From contig CAZHDX010000002.1 in NCBI GenBank assembly GCA_964531195.1, forward strand, positions 1 through 29,515: DNA of 29,515 bases, in the 5' to 3' direction. The position numbers and the translations under genes are program-made. Under the pieces are notes generated by a model that saw only the letters and a program-made list of their open reading frames with translations, ran no database searches and was not told the origin of the DNA. Shown one piece after another: positions 1 to 26,173 of this stretch (position 1 is the stretch's first letter; every line of letters begins with the position of its first letter). The DNA is from an uncultured Nitrosopumilaceae archaeon. Lineage in GTDB: Archaea > Thermoproteota > Nitrososphaeria > Nitrososphaerales > Nitrosopumilaceae.

Positions 1-152
1 CAACAAAATCACTTTCAGAGTCAGTAGGAATTACTGATTCTATTGGATCCGCTGTCATGGCAACAAAATCACTTTCAGAGTCAGTAGGAATTACTGATTC
101 TATTGGATCCGCTGTCATGGCAACAAAATCACTTTCAGAGTCAGTAGGAATT
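1..152 (+). repeat. 60-bp coding tandem repeat (about 2.5 identical copies visible, probably continuing upstream); encodes the 20-aa unit ATKSLSESVGITDSIGSAVM
   Basis: Bases 1-60 and 61-120 are identical, and 121-152 match the start of the unit. A degenerate fourth unit (KSKSFTESINIFD) stays in the same 60-nt register near 181-220. Confidence 0.97.
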
Positions 153-1043
153 GCAGATACAGTAACTCAAGGTTCACCAAAATCCAAATCGTTTACGGAA
201 TCAATTAACATATTTGATCAACTAACAGAATCATTTGCATTGCCGCCTATTCTGAAGCCAGGTGGAGAGGGCGATAGTGGTGATAGGAACCCTCCATCAA
301 TTGCCGGTTCTGCCTTTTCAGATTCGGAATATCCTTTCTCTATTAATGGAACGGGTTATCATTTATTATCACATACCAACCCAATTGAGACAGCAATTCT
401 TACCACAGGTAAGCAAGTTGATGTCAAGATACTAGTATATGATAACTCAGGACCATCAAACATACAGCATATAGGATTGTTTACCAATCTTAACGGACAA
501 AAGCAGGTAAAATCAGATAGCGACACTTACATCCTTTATGAGAAAGATCAGATGCTTCAAGTAAACGATCCAGATCACTTTTTCTCTAATGTAAATGCAT
601 CAACATCAATAATTGGAAATAAACTGCAAATCGACTTCATGATAACATTTGCAAAACCAATGGAAAAATCAGATATAATTCTTGACTTATGGGATTATGA
701 GAGAAACGACGTGCAAACAAAAATAATCAATGCGTGGCAAGTCTTGGAAAACAAGGAACCATTACAGTCTGATACTAATCAAATAATTCAAAATAATTTG
801 ATAAGCAAACCAGATGTATCAGCTAATGATCAAGACAAATTAATTTTGGCAATTAAAGAATGGGCGGGTTATTCTCAAAAATCCATCTCTGACTCGGAAC
901 TATTAGCGTTAATGGGATTAAATGGTCAACACATTCCTTACTGGGTTATGAAGATAACAAAATGGGTCATAGATGGTGAGATCAGCTTGAAAGATTTTAT
1001 CAATGCAATCAACTATCTCCATGATAAAGGGATGATAAAATAA
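3..1043 (+). CDS. 3' part of a large repeat-rich surface protein (5' end lies outside the window): 20-aa repeats, a G-rich linker, a globular domain and a C-terminal 'IPYW...KW..DGEIS..DF..AI.YL' domain
   Basis: The frame is open from base 3 (TKSLSESVG...), so the ATG at 57 is an internal repeat Met. The C-terminal domain matches three other copies in this window. Confidence 0.85.
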   Translation, partial: TKSLSESVGITDSIGSAVMATKSLSESVGITDSIGSAVMATKSLSESVGIADTVTQGSPKSKSFTESINIFDQLTESFALPPILKPGGEGDSGDRNPPSIAGSAFSDSEYPFSINGTGYHLLSHTNPIETAILTTGKQVDVKILVYDNSGPSNIQHIGLFTNLNGQKQVKSDSDTYILYEKDQMLQVNDPDHFFSNVNASTSIIGNKLQIDFMITFAKPMEKSDIILDLWDYERNDVQTKIINAWQVLENKEPLQSDTNQIIQNNLISKPDVSANDQDKLILAIKEWAGYSQKSISDSELLALMGLNGQHIPYWVMKITKWVIDGEISLKDFINAINYLHDKGMIK

Positions 1044-20351: not shown

Positions 20352-21233
20352 TTAAACATGAATCATTCCGTTGCTTGCCAAATATTGTATTCCCTTGACA
20401 AAATCATCATCTGAAATCTGACCGTCTGCCCACCATCCTGCATTTGTTTTAACCCAGCTAGGTATCTGCTGTGATTGATTTGAACTGCTCTCAGTTTTTG
20501 GAACTTTTAAAATTTCTTGATTTATCAAGTATTGTATTCCTTGAATGAATTCAGAATCAGCTAGTTGCCCCTGAGACCACCATTTTGCATTGTTTTTAAT
20601 CCATGTCGGAATTTGTAATTCATCTTGGTGTCCAGAGATTGCAAAAATGTTTGTATCAATTAAATCATATCTGATTTCAGAAATGACGCCATGTTCAAGA
20701 GTTGTTTGTCCAGCAGGAGGATGATTTGTCAAATGAAGATATAACAGCACACCTGTTGCTTTGTCAAATGCCTCCTCGCCACTACTCTCGTTTGCAGAAT
20801 GTGCCGCAGCAACTACGATTCTTTGAGAATTACTAAAGTTTTGAATCTTTTCAGAATAATCAGCATTGTTTTTGTCTATTATAATTGGAATGGGATGGAG
20901 AACGATTATTGGGTAACCAATATCATTTGTAGTTTCATTATAAAATCCTGTTTCTAGATCTAGCACACCTTTTGATTGAATCTTGTTATCGCTTGTGACA
21001 CTTGTGATAATGAAATTGATCTTGTTTGTTCCAACATGACTGCCAAAGGTATAGGTATCTGTAGTGGACACATCACCAAATTTTGTAGAATATGTAAGAG
21101 AATCTCCATTATGGAGACAGATGCTTCCTTGTACACATTCTGAATCCGATTGGGATGAGGCATCGACATTCTCCGAGATTCCGGCTATACTTGTCACCAT
21201 AATCATAATGAGGAAAAATTTCACAGATTTCAT
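20352..21233 (-). CDS. Secreted protein with two tandem C-terminal 'IP.W.K.NA.WW..GQ..D..F..GIQYL' domains
   Basis: Signal peptide ending ...NVDA; two 36-aa C-terminal repeats. Confidence 0.85.
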   Translation of the reverse strand: MKSVKFFLIMIMVTSIAGISENVDASSQSDSECVQGSICLHNGDSLTYSTKFGDVSTTDTYTFGSHVGTNKINFIITSVTSDNKIQSKGVLDLETGFYNETTNDIGYPIIVLHPIPIIIDKNNADYSEKIQNFSNSQRIVVAAAHSANESSGEEAFDKATGVLLYLHLTNHPPAGQTTLEHGVISEIRYDLIDTNIFAISGHQDELQIPTWIKNNAKWWSQGQLADSEFIQGIQYLINQEILKVPKTESSSNQSQQIPSWVKTNAGWWADGQISDDDFVKGIQYLASNGMIHV

Positions 21234-21405
21234 AATAGAGCTGTTTCCAAATCTAGTTATAATTCCTTGTGTTATCTTTATTGATCGTTAGATAAAATTT
21301 TAGCTCATATTTTATAATAATTTCCAGAGGGCAGATGAAAACAATATTCTTTTGACATAATATTTTCAAGGTAGTGTTTTTATCAGACTAATTCATATGT
21401 ATAAC

Positions 21406-21759
21406 ATGGCTAAAAATGAAAGATCTGCCAACAATTGGACAAAATTGTGGAATGAATATTCTTCTGCGCTAGAAAAGTGGAGACAATCATTTCAATCATT
21501 TCAAAAGGCAAATGCGGAAATACAGACAAAATACGGCGAAGTAATGCAAAAGGCATTCAATGAGTCAAGTCAAACTAACATGAATCAGTTTCTTGATTCT
21601 TGGAAAAAAGCAATGGATCAAGCTGGTTTGAATGCCTTCAAAGAATTTGGTGAAAATTGGCAAAATGTAATGGACCAGTCAGGTATGAGTCAACTTAAAG
21701 CCTATGGTGAAATGATGGCAAAATTTGCTGAGACATGGGAAAAAATGTGGAGAAAATAA
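21406..21759 (+). CDS. Small Trp/Met/Gln-rich amphipathic helical protein (phasin/PhaE-like character)
   Basis: No Pro or Cys; roughly 19-aa internal periodicity. Start is the ATG at 21397 or 21406; a T-tract follows the stop. Confidence 0.75.
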   Translation: MAKNERSANNWTKLWNEYSSALEKWRQSFQSFQKANAEIQTKYGEVMQKAFNESSQTNMNQFLDSWKKAMDQAGLNAFKEFGENWQNVMDQSGMSQLKAYGEMMAKFAETWEKMWRK

Positions 21760-22705: not shown

Positions 22706-23206
22706 GTGGATGATTCTAATTCTCTTTTAGAGGATGCCTATGACCTTTGTCAAGAAGGTGAGCATACGTTGGCTCTTGAATACTATGATCTTGTGCTTCT
22801 CAAAGATCCAAATAATTTAATGGCTCTAATTGACAAGGGTGTTACTTTACAAAATCTTGGCAAGTATAAACAGGCAATAAAATGCTATGACAATGCTTTG
22901 TCGCTAGACTCTCAGAATAAAACAACTCTTGTCAACAAGGGTTCTGCTTTACACAGTCTTGGAAGATATCACGATTCGATTGAATGTTATGACATGGCTT
23001 TAAAGATCGACTCCAAATATGCTCTAGCCATAGCATACAAGGGATTATCTCTAGGTGAGATTGGACTGCTAAAGCAAGCCATAAAATGCTTCAATATGGC
23101 TTTGAAAATTAATAAAAAATATGATCTTGCCTTAAACAATAAAGCAATAGCACTGCAACTGCTCAAGGAGAATGTCAAAATTAAACCAAAATTACAAAAG
23201 CCATGA
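22706..23206 (+). CDS. Tetratricopeptide repeat protein
   Basis: About four 34-aa TPR units (e.g. ALIDKGVTLQNLGKYKQAIKCYDNALSLD). Confidence 0.93.
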   Translation: MDDSNSLLEDAYDLCQEGEHTLALEYYDLVLLKDPNNLMALIDKGVTLQNLGKYKQAIKCYDNALSLDSQNKTTLVNKGSALHSLGRYHDSIECYDMALKIDSKYALAIAYKGLSLGEIGLLKQAIKCFNMALKINKKYDLALNNKAIALQLLKENVKIKPKLQKP

Positions 23207-23259
23207 TAAGAATCGGCATCCCGCAATAAGATTAAACTAGAGAAGAGCAAAGTTAGATT

Positions 23260-24294
23260 GTGAAGTATTTAATCGCAATACTGTTATTGATATCCCTTCC
23301 AGCATGTTATGCCATATCTGTTGCCCCTGGCAGCACTGTACCTTTTTATATTAATGACGGAAATCTTAATGCAAATCACAGGGGAATTGACAACATATCA
23401 ACCTCTGGATTGGTAGATTTTACGATCAACGGAGTTCCAATCTCTGGTCCTTCCAGTATGACAGAGACCTCGGTAGACTCGGGAATTTTTTTGCTTTATC
23501 TAACAATCCCATCTACTGTTGACGGCAAGCAAGTCAAAGATGGAGACGTGGTTGTTATGACATATCACCAAGCAGCAGATTATTCTGGAAACCCAACTAC
23601 TATAACACAATCAGTCACAATATCTGAAGCTCCGTCATCAACTATTCCTTCTTCACAGAACAATGTAGGGATAGGACATATCTTTTCTCTAAAACTCTAT
23701 GCACCAAATTGGAATCTTGATTCTTTAGAACCTGATACAATTCCTCTTGATCTGATAGAATTTCGAGACGGTGGATTTGTTACCACTTTGGCAAATCCTG
23801 TTTTTGATATTCCAACATCAGGATTGAGAGAGACTGGACCCAATACAGATGTTTTTGCTGCTCAAATAAAAATTCCAAGGCAGATAGGCAGCTACACATT
23901 AGAGCTTGGTTCTACTATCGAATTTAGCTTTAAAGATCCAACCGGAGGAAATTTGGCTGAAACAAGTCACATAACGGCAAGACTTGGCTCTACAAGTTTG
24001 CAAAATGTTTTTCCATCAACTATCTCTGAACCTACAATAACATCAATAGATTCCATAAAATCACAAGGAAAGATTTGGTGCGATACTAATTCTGGTGATG
24101 CGGGTTTTATCAAAATACTCCAAAATCTTGTAGTAAACAAATTCATTATCGCAAAGTCAAATTTAGGCATGCAATTTCCGGCATGGTCTAAAAATACTAT
24201 ATGCTGGTGGTCAAATGAAAAGATAACTGACAATGACTTTCTTACTGGATTACAATTCTTATTTGATAAGAACCTAATCAAAGTTGGGTCATGA
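23260..24294 (+). CDS. Secreted S-layer-protein-like fragment (two Ig-like 'ETG/ETS' units) with a C-terminal WW-type surface domain
   Basis: Signal peptide ending ...ACYA; MTETSVDSGIF and LRETGPNTDVF motifs; C-terminal FPAWSKNTICWWSNEKITDNDF. Confidence 0.75.
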   Translation: MKYLIAILLLISLPACYAISVAPGSTVPFYINDGNLNANHRGIDNISTSGLVDFTINGVPISGPSSMTETSVDSGIFLLYLTIPSTVDGKQVKDGDVVVMTYHQAADYSGNPTTITQSVTISEAPSSTIPSSQNNVGIGHIFSLKLYAPNWNLDSLEPDTIPLDLIEFRDGGFVTTLANPVFDIPTSGLRETGPNTDVFAAQIKIPRQIGSYTLELGSTIEFSFKDPTGGNLAETSHITARLGSTSLQNVFPSTISEPTITSIDSIKSQGKIWCDTNSGDAGFIKILQNLVVNKFIIAKSNLGMQFPAWSKNTICWWSNEKITDNDFLTGLQFLFDKNLIKVGS

Positions 24295-24380
24295 GCAAAA
24301 GATTCGATAATATTTAAAAGATCCATAATTTCATAATTTCAAACCTTTTAATTAGAAAATGAAGTCAGCTATAATGATTA

Positions 24381-25538
24381 ATGAAACTTGTTATTTTTAT
24401 AATGATAATTGCATTTTTGTTATCGACGCAACTGGTGTCCGCAACTAGTGTAGGTTTTGATCAAAAAACATACACATGGACCAATCTAGTGAATATTCGT
24501 GTCTTTGCACCAGATTTTGATTCAGATCCAAATCTTGTTGATACAATTGATGTATCCGTTTCAACAAGGGGTCATAATCTACCGCAGTATAGATTAGCGG
24601 AGACTGGAGTAAATACAGGAATATTTGGAGGCGTCGTGACTCTTACTGGAGATCCATCAATAAAAGGAGCAGAAGGTATAGACGGAAGTGGTACAAATCC
24701 TACCGGTCTATTGGGTGGTAGCGGTCCAACTAATGGATTTTTGCCAGCTGAAAGCAGTGATGGTGTAACTGTTTCTTTCGAATACAATAAAGATCTGACT
24801 ATAACTGGCTCTGCTCCTATACAATGGAATGTTGGGCAAATAAAATGGCTGCAGCAAAATTATCAAATTAATGAACAAGGTGTTTTGCAAATAATTGATC
24901 AAGACATGAATCTTAACCCAAAAGCTGTAGATAAATTTGAGACAAGCGTCTGGTCTGATTCGGATTCTAGTGGAACAAAAATTTCAATGACAGAGACAGG
25001 AGAAGACACAGGAATTTTCCAAGGCATTGTCTACTTTACTACAGACTCTCACTCGTCAAGTAACAGACTTTTTGTTAATCCTGGAGATACAATTACAGGT
25101 GAATATATAGACAGATCTCTACCTCCTCCCCATTCTATTTCTGATGAAGTGCATCTTACTGCAACTACGACAGTTGGAACCACTAATCAACCACTAGAAC
25201 AAATAATTTCTAACAATCCAAGAATTCTTGATTCATTTGGCAATCCTATAAGCACAGTAAAAGAAAATCAGCAGATCCTAATTGCAGCCGATCTTACAAA
25301 CACGCATCAAAAAGATCAGCCTTTTACATATATTCTTCAAGTAGTAGATTCGAATGGAGTTACTTTATCTGTATCTTGGATAACAGGAACACTGGTTGAC
25401 AATCAATCTCTTAATCTTGCAGAATCATGGATGCCTCAATCTCCTGGAAAATACACCGCTCAAATTTTTGTCTGGAAGAATCTTTTAGAACCTGATGCAT
25501 TAGCACCTCCTCTTTCTACAACTATAACTGTCTCTTAA
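24381..25538 (+). CDS. Secreted protein resembling the C-terminal domains of the thaumarchaeal S-layer protein
   Basis: FDQKTYTWT, VSTRG, LAETGVNTGIF, DQDMNLNP, MTETGEDTGIFQG and the ending QPFTYILQV.D..GVT...SWITG.L...IFVW....P.AL.PPLSTTITV, recalled from Nitrosopumilus S-layer proteins. Confidence 0.8.
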   Translation: MKLVIFIMIIAFLLSTQLVSATSVGFDQKTYTWTNLVNIRVFAPDFDSDPNLVDTIDVSVSTRGHNLPQYRLAETGVNTGIFGGVVTLTGDPSIKGAEGIDGSGTNPTGLLGGSGPTNGFLPAESSDGVTVSFEYNKDLTITGSAPIQWNVGQIKWLQQNYQINEQGVLQIIDQDMNLNPKAVDKFETSVWSDSDSSGTKISMTETGEDTGIFQGIVYFTTDSHSSSNRLFVNPGDTITGEYIDRSLPPPHSISDEVHLTATTTVGTTNQPLEQIISNNPRILDSFGNPISTVKENQQILIAADLTNTHQKDQPFTYILQVVDSNGVTLSVSWITGTLVDNQSLNLAESWMPQSPGKYTAQIFVWKNLLEPDALAPPLSTTITVS

Positions 25539-25582
25539 TCTCTGAAGCAAATCAAGTTAAAATTAAAAAAATCTATATTTTT

Positions 25583-26173
25583 TTAAATTTGATCTTTATT
25601 TGAGAGAACTCCACCATGACCAAATTTTGGCGCATAAATCGTCTCATGATGATTTTCCCGGAGTTCTGACAACCATTCCTTGCGCCTATTTGATTCGATT
25701 TTAGATAAATCATATGGGCACATGACAGATCCTCCAAAATCATCAAAACATTGGTGAAGTTGTTTTTCAAGTTCTAATTCTGTAGACATGCCAACAAGAG
25801 TGTTAACGTCCGGTATAATCCTTGAAACTATTCTAAAGGGAGATCTCAAACCAGATAATATCATTTCAAGGCTCTTCTTGGAATTTCCTAATATTTGTTC
25901 ACGGCTAGTATAACCATCATGGAGTTGGTATACTCGCAGCTTTTTGCTTTCAAGATATTCAAGCGGTATTCCAAAGCTTAACATCTTGACTACAATATCA
26001 CCTGAATCTTCATCGGTGGCATATACGCACTGCTCACCCTGCATTAATCCGTTTTTTATAAATCGAAATTCTATTAGTCGAGCATATTCTGGTTCTTCAT
26101 AAAATAGCGCAATATGTTTGCGCTTATCCACTGAATCTATGAATTTTAATGGAATCGGTTCTGTATAACTCAA
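25583..26173 (-). CDS. Stand-alone MEDS (DcmR-like sensory) domain protein
   Basis: HIALFYE...F...FIKNGL..GEQCVY and CPYDL motifs. Confidence 0.82.
   Translation of the reverse strand: MSYTEPIPLKFIDSVDKRKHIALFYEEPEYARLIEFRFIKNGLMQGEQCVYATDEDSGDIVVKMLSFGIPLEYLESKKLRVYQLHDGYTSREQILGNSKKSLEMILSGLRSPFRIVSRIIPDVNTLVGMSTELELEKQLHQCFDDFGGSVMCPYDLSKIESNRRKEWLSELRENHHETIYAPKFGHGGVLSNKDQI

Follow-up and report, generated by a model that had tools for sequence, protein, structure and literature searches.

The window analysed here, 29,515 nucleotides of an uncultured, ammonia-oxidizing soil archaeon of the Nitrosopumilaceae, is the entire 29.5-kb contig C2 of a metagenome-assembled genome (MAG; G000) that is fragmented into 237 contigs and is 84% complete. 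Two genes, hereafter gene 1 and gene 2, follow each other head to tail on its forward strand and are separated by 86 nt (Table 1). An earlier note, drawn from the letters of the DNA, had described them as intact neighbouring genes whose exported products resemble consecutive segments of the major surface-layer (S-layer) protein (SLP) of ammonia-oxidizing archaea (AOA), and both the reading frames and the spacing proved to be exactly as described. The alignments reported below uphold the likeness to consecutive S-layer segments, and the phylogenetic analyses point to a different age for each of the two genes.

Relationship to the S-layer protein

The SLP of Nitrosopumilus maritimus (NmSLP, Nmar_1547) is a chain of ten immunoglobulin (Ig)-like domains in the structural account of this protein (PMC11153153), where D1 to D8 cover residues 37-1499 (1499 being the end of D8), D9, up to residue 1616, makes up the membrane-proximal base of the layer, and D10, which runs to residue 1734, is unresolved, flexible, located in the pseudoperiplasm and speculated to anchor the layer. 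When the sequences of PDB chains were searched, NmSLP (8c8k and related entries, 1734 aa) was the sole meaningful target of both genes. Residues 22-385 of gene 2 align with residues 1367-1734 of 8c8k_A without large gaps (phmmer, E 8.5e-108), and the alignment reaches the last residue of NmSLP, so that the canonical S-layer C-terminus ascribed to gene 2 is indeed present. The AlphaFold2 (AF2) model of gene 2 comprises three beta-sandwich domains (predicted local distance difference test, pLDDT, 71.8 overall and ~90 for D10), with a Gly-rich disordered loop at aa 90-126 inside the D8-like domain, and its top Foldseek match is again 8c8k_A (E 9.5e-26, 50% identity). The net charge of gene 2 is -6.3 per 100 aa, compared with about -5 in the C-terminus of same-genus SLPs, and 82 alignment columns are invariant over SLPs and the two families of D8-D10 mini proteins (mini-A and mini-B, the latter being the gene 2 type) that are introduced below.

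In the case of gene 1, phmmer aligned aa 92-230 with residues 1200-1346 of 8c8k_A (E 1.2e-10), and the second Ig domain is 31-39% identical to S-layer D7 domains according to BLASTP. Profile-profile comparison with hhalign, in which a profile of 55 gene 1 relatives was set against a profile of seven S-layer proteins, matched aa 19-249 to NmSLP-like residues 1055-1365 (probability 99%, E 7e-18), and moving the register by one domain made the result eight orders of magnitude worse. The match ends at about NmSLP residue 1365, which agrees with the earlier placement of gene 1 just before D8 (the 'DQK.YTWT' domain). The AF2 model (pLDDT 72.5) consists of an N-terminal helix, two beta-sandwiches (26-120 and 135-242), a linker (244-260) and two helical hairpins (263-292 and 308-336), and its top Foldseek matches are NmSLP structures (E 3e-14). 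In more distant homologues of ~410 aa, the region of the linker is occupied by a HYR-like domain.

Both N-termini carry a hydrophobic helix of the signal-peptide type in the AF2 models and the Kyte-Doolittle profiles, in line with the suggestion that each protein has a predicted signal peptide of its own; the start position of gene 1 is common to its orthologues, with ATG or GTG as start codon. The S-layer motifs named in the earlier note turned out to be accurate in the alignments to NmSLP. The NmSLP alignments abut (gene 1 to ~1365, gene 2 from 1366/1367), so that, judged from their sequences, the two genes reproduce S-layer protein segments in collinear order, one directly after the other, the break falling between D7 and D8. 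This collinearity is returned by phmmer, BLASTP and hhalign alike, with the SLPs of same-genus genomes and NmSLP as references.

Neither gene has a match above threshold in Pfam or NCBIfam (the Pfam copy searched was without PF28202, a family listed for homologues), and gene 2 has a sub-threshold match to the Kustd1514 anammox S-layer entry. Public records name these proteins 'hypothetical' or 'conserved exported protein of unknown function', our literature searches found no description of these mini proteins, and the sections on S-layer paralogues in the structural paper (PMC11153153) and in the Nitrosotalea genome paper deal with full-length paralogues only. The mini-protein family is undescribed; it is a variant of a known theme and overturns nothing known.

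Table 1. Features of the two-gene locus and its surroundings (positions in the window)
Feature	Position	Strand	Remarks
TPR (tetratricopeptide)-repeat gene, syntenic neighbour 5' of gene 1	22706-23206	+	Pfam TPR_1, E 5.7e-26
TATA-like box (GATTAAACTAGA)	23230-23241	+	19-30 nt 5' of gene 1 start codon
Gene 1	23260-24294	+	GTG start, 344 aa, free of internal stops
Gene 1, signal-peptide-like N-terminus, aa 1-19 (VKYLIAILLLISLPACYA/IS)	23260-23316	+	AF2 hydrophobic helix; Kyte-Doolittle maximum 2.83
Gene 1, Ig domain 1, aa 20-122, D6-like without the D6 insertions	23317-23625	+	hhalign; AF2 beta strands 26-120
Gene 1, Ig domain 2, aa 123-243, D7-like with LRETGPNTDVF motif	23626-23988	+	phmmer, BLASTP
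Gene 1, Ser/Thr-rich disordered linker, aa 244-262	23989-24045	+	AF2 pLDDT <50 at 244-260
Gene 1, tail with two WW repeats: aa 263-298 degenerate, aa 305-344 canonical	24046-24291	+	Iterated hidden Markov model (HMM); AF2 helical hairpins
TATA-like box (TTTTAATTAGAAAA; relatives TTAAATAGAAAA)	24346-24359	+	22-35 nt 5' of gene 2 ATG
Gene 2	24381-25538	+	ATG start, 385 aa, free of internal stops
Gene 2, signal-peptide-like N-terminus, aa 1-21 (...LLSTQLVSA/TS)	24381-24443	+	AF2 helix 2-17; Kyte-Doolittle maximum 3.57
Gene 2, D8-like domain, aa 22-150	24444-24830	+	BLASTP on NmSLP-like 1366-1499; 56% identity to same-genus SLP
Gene 2, D9-like domain, aa 151-268	24831-25184	+	BLASTP on NmSLP-like 1500-1616; 67% identity to same-genus SLP
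Gene 2, D10-like domain, aa 269-385, end PPLSTTITVS	25185-25535	+	BLASTP on NmSLP-like 1620-1734; 62% identity to same-genus SLP; pLDDT ~90
T7 run, possible archaeal terminator	25578-25584	+	40 nt past gene 2 stop codon; read from sequence
Other WW-repeat open reading frame (ORF)	3-1040	+	Iterated HMM
Other WW-repeat ORF	20355-21233	-	Iterated HMM

Conservation and selection

The tandem pair is found head to tail in nine of ten same-genus genomes, the exception being a genome of 71% completeness, and its spacer measures ~45-92 nt; the nine include an unpublished genome, G001, whose omission leaves the result unchanged. Compared with the copies of the window, the same-genus orthologues show 61-65% identity for gene 1 and 69-74% for gene 2. 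Within the genus, gene 1 has a ratio of nonsynonymous to synonymous divergence (dN/dS, Nei-Gojobori) of 0.16-0.32 and gene 2 one of 0.11-0.27, against 0.05-0.31 for the matching parts of full-length SLPs and 0.09-0.21 for the SLP C-terminus. Because these values lie far below 1 and close to those of the full-length SLP parts, the genes are not decaying duplicates, and by this measure both are functional and under purifying selection.

A survey of public genomes (one genome per species, 4-kb flanks around the gene 1 homologue) recovered the tandem pair in all seven loci with a gene 1 of 61% identity or more, which come from soil and groundwater MAGs (one named TA_20), and in none of the 56 loci with a lower-identity homologue, mostly labelled Nitrosotalea; a 64th locus matched the WW tail alone. 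The two-gene arrangement thus stands for the nine same-genus genomes and the seven MAG loci, and the genes are unlinked in the Nitrosotalea-like loci. In Ca. Nitrosotalea devanaterra, the homologues of gene 1 and gene 2 are 54 kb apart. The head-to-tail adjacency is specific to this genus and most likely secondary.

The main S-layer gene of the host is present as a 5' fragment of the first ~450 codons that runs off a 2.2-kb contig (C202:822-2177(+)), and a homologue of SlaB is encoded on contig C17. Because both are there, the pair is an addition to the S-layer system rather than a replacement; in relatives, full-length SLPs (1557-2311 aa) coexist with the pair. Between the same species pairs, synonymous divergence (dS) amounts to 0.22-0.43 for genes 1 and 2 versus 0.03-0.19 for the 3' end of the SLP gene, and this 2-7-fold excess fits a much lower expression of the two genes than of the SLP. 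High expression of the SLP gene, with codons under strong constraint, or a recent exchange of S-layer genes between species could account for its low dS. The SLP of genome G004 has 2303 aa, against ~1800 aa in its relatives.

Origin of the two genes

The D8-D10 tree has 36 rows and is rooted with another family; in it, one clade (99/94) unites the nine gene 2 orthologues of the genus with a 410-aa protein of Ca. Nitrosotalea devanaterra (G019; CUR52141) and is nested inside the full-length SLPs of just this genus and Nitrosotalea (95/100); this is the younger type that we call mini-B. A second D8-D10 family of 389-396 aa, mini-A, occurs in marine and other genera, falls into a long-branched and separate clade (100/100) and is 37-40% identical to the gene 2 type, and none of the genomes examined holds mini-A and mini-B together. 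In the D7 tree, gene 1, its Nitrosotalea homologue (58% identical) and marine homologues (314-353 aa, 38-42% identical over both Ig domains, without the WW tail) stand on one side of a branch (95/97) and all S-layer D7 domains of the family on the opposite side. If gene 1 were as old as gene 2, it should group with the D7 domains found in this genus and in Nitrosotalea, but a tree constrained in that way is rejected by the approximately unbiased (AU) test (p 0.0047), and in G008 the identity to the resident SLP is 67% for gene 2 versus 31% for gene 1. Based on the two trees, the AU test and this identity gap, genes 1 and 2 derive from S-layer gene segments copied at different times, the trees resting on 140-370 residues and non-independent kin, and the D7 tree being read as unrooted. 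The earlier note had proposed that a duplicated C-terminal half of the S-layer gene was split into two functional proteins: consecutive copies they are, and functional to judge from dN/dS and conservation, whereas the trees, the AU test and the unlinked loci do not support the single split as proposed.

The surroundings of the older families are worth recording. The mini-A gene (389-393 aa) of the Nitrosopumilus-like genomes G013, G022 and G023 (loci L026, L028 and L029) lies between the gene of RNA polymerase subunit A and nusA/rps12/rps7, and in G013 and G022 the next gene encodes a protein of 505-570 aa whose N-terminus is signal-peptide-like and whose C-terminus is hydrophobic. We considered that the gene downstream of marine mini-A might be a SlaB paralogue, mimicking the SlaA-SlaB pair, and rejected this idea as BLASTP found no similarity. 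The mini-A gene of G024 has a gene 1-like gene as its divergent neighbour, and in G012 a WW-repeat protein follows mini-A; these two neighbourhoods hint at a functional coupling. The gene 1-like protein of G024 (L027:3564-4799(-)) ends with C-x15-C-x11-RGW, and three marine gene 1 homologues (L057:3545-4540(-), L058:3441-4385(-) and L056:2935-3969(+)) begin with a PKKQ-x11-C segment.

Promoter-like elements and neighbouring genes

The TATA-like box of gene 1 is invariant or nearly so in eight same-genus loci, in which the spacer after the TPR gene is otherwise variable, and that of gene 2 has a core, TTAA-TAGAAAA, that is invariant in nine. Both boxes are built on a similar core (TTAAAyTAGA) in a spacer that varies around it. 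Since a TATA-like box is conserved ahead of gene 2, this gene probably has its own promoter, and the pattern as a whole suggests separate promoters for the two genes with short leaders or none. The T7 run after gene 2 may be an archaeal terminator; inspection of the sequence found no comparable T run 3' of gene 1.

In all same-genus loci, the 3' end of the TPR gene precedes gene 1, and in N. devanaterra the TPR orthologue lies ~1.8 kb from the gene 1 homologue. The window also holds a 120-aa W/K/Q-rich ORF (21397-21759(+)) whose N. devanaterra orthologue adjoins the mini-B gene. The neighbourhood of this ORF and mini-B and that of the TPR gene and the gene 1 homologue are 54 kb apart in that genome, and therefore a rearrangement joined or separated the two neighbourhoods.

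The WW repeat and other envelope modules of the genome

The WW-type C-terminal domain previously noticed on gene 1 was confirmed, as two repeats of ~40 residues of which the first is degenerate, and AF2 predicts four helices in it (263-276, 280-292, 308-318 and 324-336). The repeat has the consensus QIPxWxKNNAxWWSxGxISDxDFVxGIQYLIxKGII. An iterated HMM detected 30 copies in the genome, distributed over 18 ORFs and for the most part arranged as tandem pairs close to or at the C-terminus; 16 of these ORFs have a signal-peptide-like N-terminus and the remaining two are cut by contig ends. Besides the window, the copies are spread over contigs C10, C12, C14, C19, C21, C34, C38, C43, C66, C69, C101, C132 and C147. 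Searches of Pfam, NCBIfam and the PDB (by sequence and by profile) gave no significant match to the repeat, and in the ESM Atlas it matched unnamed Nitrososphaerota clusters only (score 0.82). The WW repeat looks like an undescribed envelope-targeting module of Nitrososphaerota.

Single S-layer-like domains also occur on other ORFs of the genome. D10-like domains are found on seven ORFs, all with a signal-peptide-like N-terminus, on contigs C20 (6829-7320(-)), C26 (482-961(-)), C5, C6 (12881-15937(+)), C45 and C66. Two of them, of ~160 aa, are essentially D10 alone and have same-genus counterparts of 130-155 aa; one ORF on C66 combines a D10-like domain with the WW repeat; and the ORF on C6 encodes an S-layer paralogue of 1019 aa that has a D10-like end and shows 33% identity across the N-terminal 1000 residues. 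D9-like domains are found on two ORFs of ~650 aa. A 206-aa ORF (C38:9526-10143(+)) joins a D8-like domain to a C-terminal sorting signal of the PEFG type (TPEFG, hydrophobic helix, KKFEK); its product would be a membrane-anchored single S-layer domain, and a 208-aa counterpart exists in G006.

Discussion

With moderate confidence, we favour the view that the locus comprises two separately promoted accessory genes made of SLP domains, gene 2 being a young partial duplicate and gene 1 a member of an older family, and that both products reside on the inner face of the S-layer. Both proteins would be exported by the Sec pathway without a membrane anchor. Gene 2 is a free-standing copy of the three innermost SLP domains, namely D8, D9 (the base of the lattice) and D10 (flexible and the presumed anchor); it probably arose when the 3' third of the SLP gene was duplicated in an ancestor shared by the soil genus and Nitrosotalea. 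Gene 1 represents an older D6-D7-like family of two Ig domains, fused through the disordered linker to two WW helical-hairpin repeats. The most likely function that can be read from these architectures is that of accessory S-layer-associated proteins in the pseudoperiplasm. Gene 2 might make the same D8/D9 contacts and bind the same D10 partner as the inner module of the SLP, and could in this way add or compete for anchoring points or fill irregularities of the lattice, while gene 1 would dock via its D6-D7-like pair, its WW module or both. Because the whole D8-D10 module is conserved, the retention of native contacts fits better than a generic scaffold.

Several points weigh against this view. 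The host SLP is known as a fragment only, so that the comparisons had to use the SLPs of same-genus genomes; three genomes of the family that are nearly complete (G014, G015 and G016) yielded no D8-D10 mini gene, and for this reason such genes are dispensable; and Ig domains are versatile, which makes a role unrelated to the lattice possible. As regards the origin, the exact D7/D8 junction and the collinear order in the genus also fit the split of a single precursor, and fast evolution, in an alignment of 140 residues, could make gene 1 branch more deeply than it should.

A role unrelated to the lattice would imply that SLP-type Ig domains serve here as stable extracellular scaffolds, for instance in adhesion, in the binding of ligands or cations in the pseudoperiplasm, or in contacts with other cells or viruses. 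Consistent with this, other exported proteins carry single SLP-like domains (D10 on the seven ORFs, D9-like on the two of ~650 aa, D8-like with a PEFG-type anchor), mini genes can be dispensed with in some genomes of the family, and the synonymous divergence, 2-7 times that of the SLP, suggests lower expression. Yet gene 2 has all three inner domains in native order, its charge density equals that of the SLP C-terminus, and the 82 invariant columns span SLPs and both mini families, all of which makes a scaffold detached from the lattice rather unlikely.

Doubtful to a similar degree is a single-split origin, according to which one D6-D10 partial duplicate of the SLP gene was split at D7/D8, the D8-D10 half being later homogenised by gene conversion and thus looking young, and the tandem order of the genus would be ancestral and lost elsewhere through rearrangement. 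The strictly consecutive junction between two genes of the same strand and order, 86 nt apart, speaks for it, as do the older mini-A family of marine genera, which like the gene 1 family stands outside the SLP crown, the mutual exclusion of mini-A and the younger type, and the adjacency of gene 1-like and mini-A genes in G024. However, this neighbour in G024 is divergently oriented and outside the gene 1 clade, and the lack of adjacency in the 56 Nitrosotalea-like loci and in Nitrosopumilus genomes would call for several independent separations. The scenario further requires an extra and complete conversion event, a trace of which was sought as residues common to mini-A and mini-B against all SLPs; two conservative columns only were found, and the similarity of gene 2 to the SLP is uniform over D8, D9 and D10, with no mosaic.

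More speculatively, and in our estimation with a rather small chance of being right, the free-standing SLP domains (D8-D10, D10, D6-D7) and the tandem WW repeat could be mutually recognising modules of a docking system on the inner face of the AOA S-layer. By analogy with cohesin-dockerin or SLH anchoring, such modules might position dozens of exported proteins in the pseudoperiplasm, an extension we regard as no less tentative, and in an equally conjectural variant genes 1 and 2 would act as an adaptor couple, gene 2 binding under the lattice or to a D10 receptor and gene 1 bridging to WW-recognising partners. Finally, it is extremely improbable that the pair is what decay has left of a broken S-layer gene, or that it stems from a misassembly or a frameshift error, as might be suspected in a fragmented MAG with an incomplete main SLP gene. 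This reading is refuted by dN/dS far below 1 and by the same intact ORFs, which recur with the same starts and stops and with the promoter motif of the spacer in nine genomes of the genus and in seven public MAGs, to which may be added the predicted signal peptide of each gene, the non-SLP tail of gene 1 and the full-length SLPs that coexist with the pair in relatives.

If the two genes are indeed accessory components of the inner S-layer face, they bear on how the S-layer is tethered to the cell. Many Nitrosopumilaceae keep small, predicted-exported D8-D10 proteins under purifying selection, and some keep D10 alone; in this group, paralogues at the level of domains have arisen from S-layer genes again and again, in the case of D8-D10 at least twice. 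Being small and tractable, the mini proteins and the WW repeat can serve as reagents in the search for the D10 partner and for whatever lies under the lattice. As for annotation, the mini genes should not be taken for broken S-layer genes, a point relevant to the diversity of surface proteins in metagenomes.

Among known systems, the closest is NmSLP itself (8c8k/8c8l/8c8m). Gene 2 is homologous to D8-D10 over its whole mature length, with ~48-50% identity to marine NmSLP-type proteins (mini genes and SLPs of the same genus share 61-67%), gene 1, at ~30%, is a homologue of D6-D7, and both have ETGxxTGxF-type motifs and beta-sandwich folds. In contrast to the ten domains of NmSLP, gene 2 has three and gene 1 two, each with a predicted signal peptide of its own, and gene 1 ends in a helical tail foreign to SLPs. 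Both are without D1-D5, the hexamer core and outer glycan-bearing face, and because of this they cannot form a lattice alone and are not S-layer proteins proper. They are also much less acidic than marine NmSLP (about -4 to -6 versus -13 per 100 aa). The SLPs of the soil genus and Nitrosotalea (L033-L039) themselves have a net charge of about -2.4 to -3.5 per 100 aa versus -13.4 in the marine NmSLP-like protein. The AOA S-layer has been proposed to concentrate ammonium at the cell surface, and the low charge of these SLPs bears on the generality of that charge-based trapping model. Mini-A proteins (e.g., WP_211686486.1 of Nitrosopumilus sp. K4, annotated as hypothetical) resemble gene 2 in their size, their signal peptide and their stand-alone exported D8-D9-D10 architecture, but belong to a separate, old clade at 37-40% identity, and the rpoA-nusA copies have no gene 1 homologue beside them.

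In the SlaA/SlaB system of Sulfolobus, too, a small second protein is proposed to lie under the canopy and to link it to the membrane, and a SlaB homologue of AOA is noted in the structural account (PMC11153153). Genes 1 and 2 differ in having neither a C-terminal transmembrane helix nor similarity to SlaB: a SlaB query had no match in the window, the C-terminal element is a beta strand in gene 2 and a set of helical repeats in gene 1, and the PEFG-CTERM/archaeosortase signal (PEFG, hydrophobic helix, basic tail) is absent from both C-termini. The WW repeat recalls dockerins, which are likewise tandemly duplicated segments of ~20-40 aa at the C-terminus of proteins with signal-peptide-like N-termini, but it is devoid of the Ca-binding DxDxDG F-hand loop and of similarity in Pfam or the PDB.

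A last parallel is offered by bacteria. The Cwp/CWB2 family of Clostridioides difficile and the SLH-domain BSL proteins of Bacillus anthracis are S-layer paralogues or associates that share the anchoring module of the main SLP. The present host is an archaeon with no cell-wall polymer, its modules are Ig-like (D10) or a novel helical repeat instead of CWB2 or SLH, and the anchoring by D10 is a speculation in the literature. As in those bacteria, however, several exported proteins per genome share a module (seven ORFs for the D10-like domain and 18 for the WW repeat), and some of them are short paralogues of the SLP itself.

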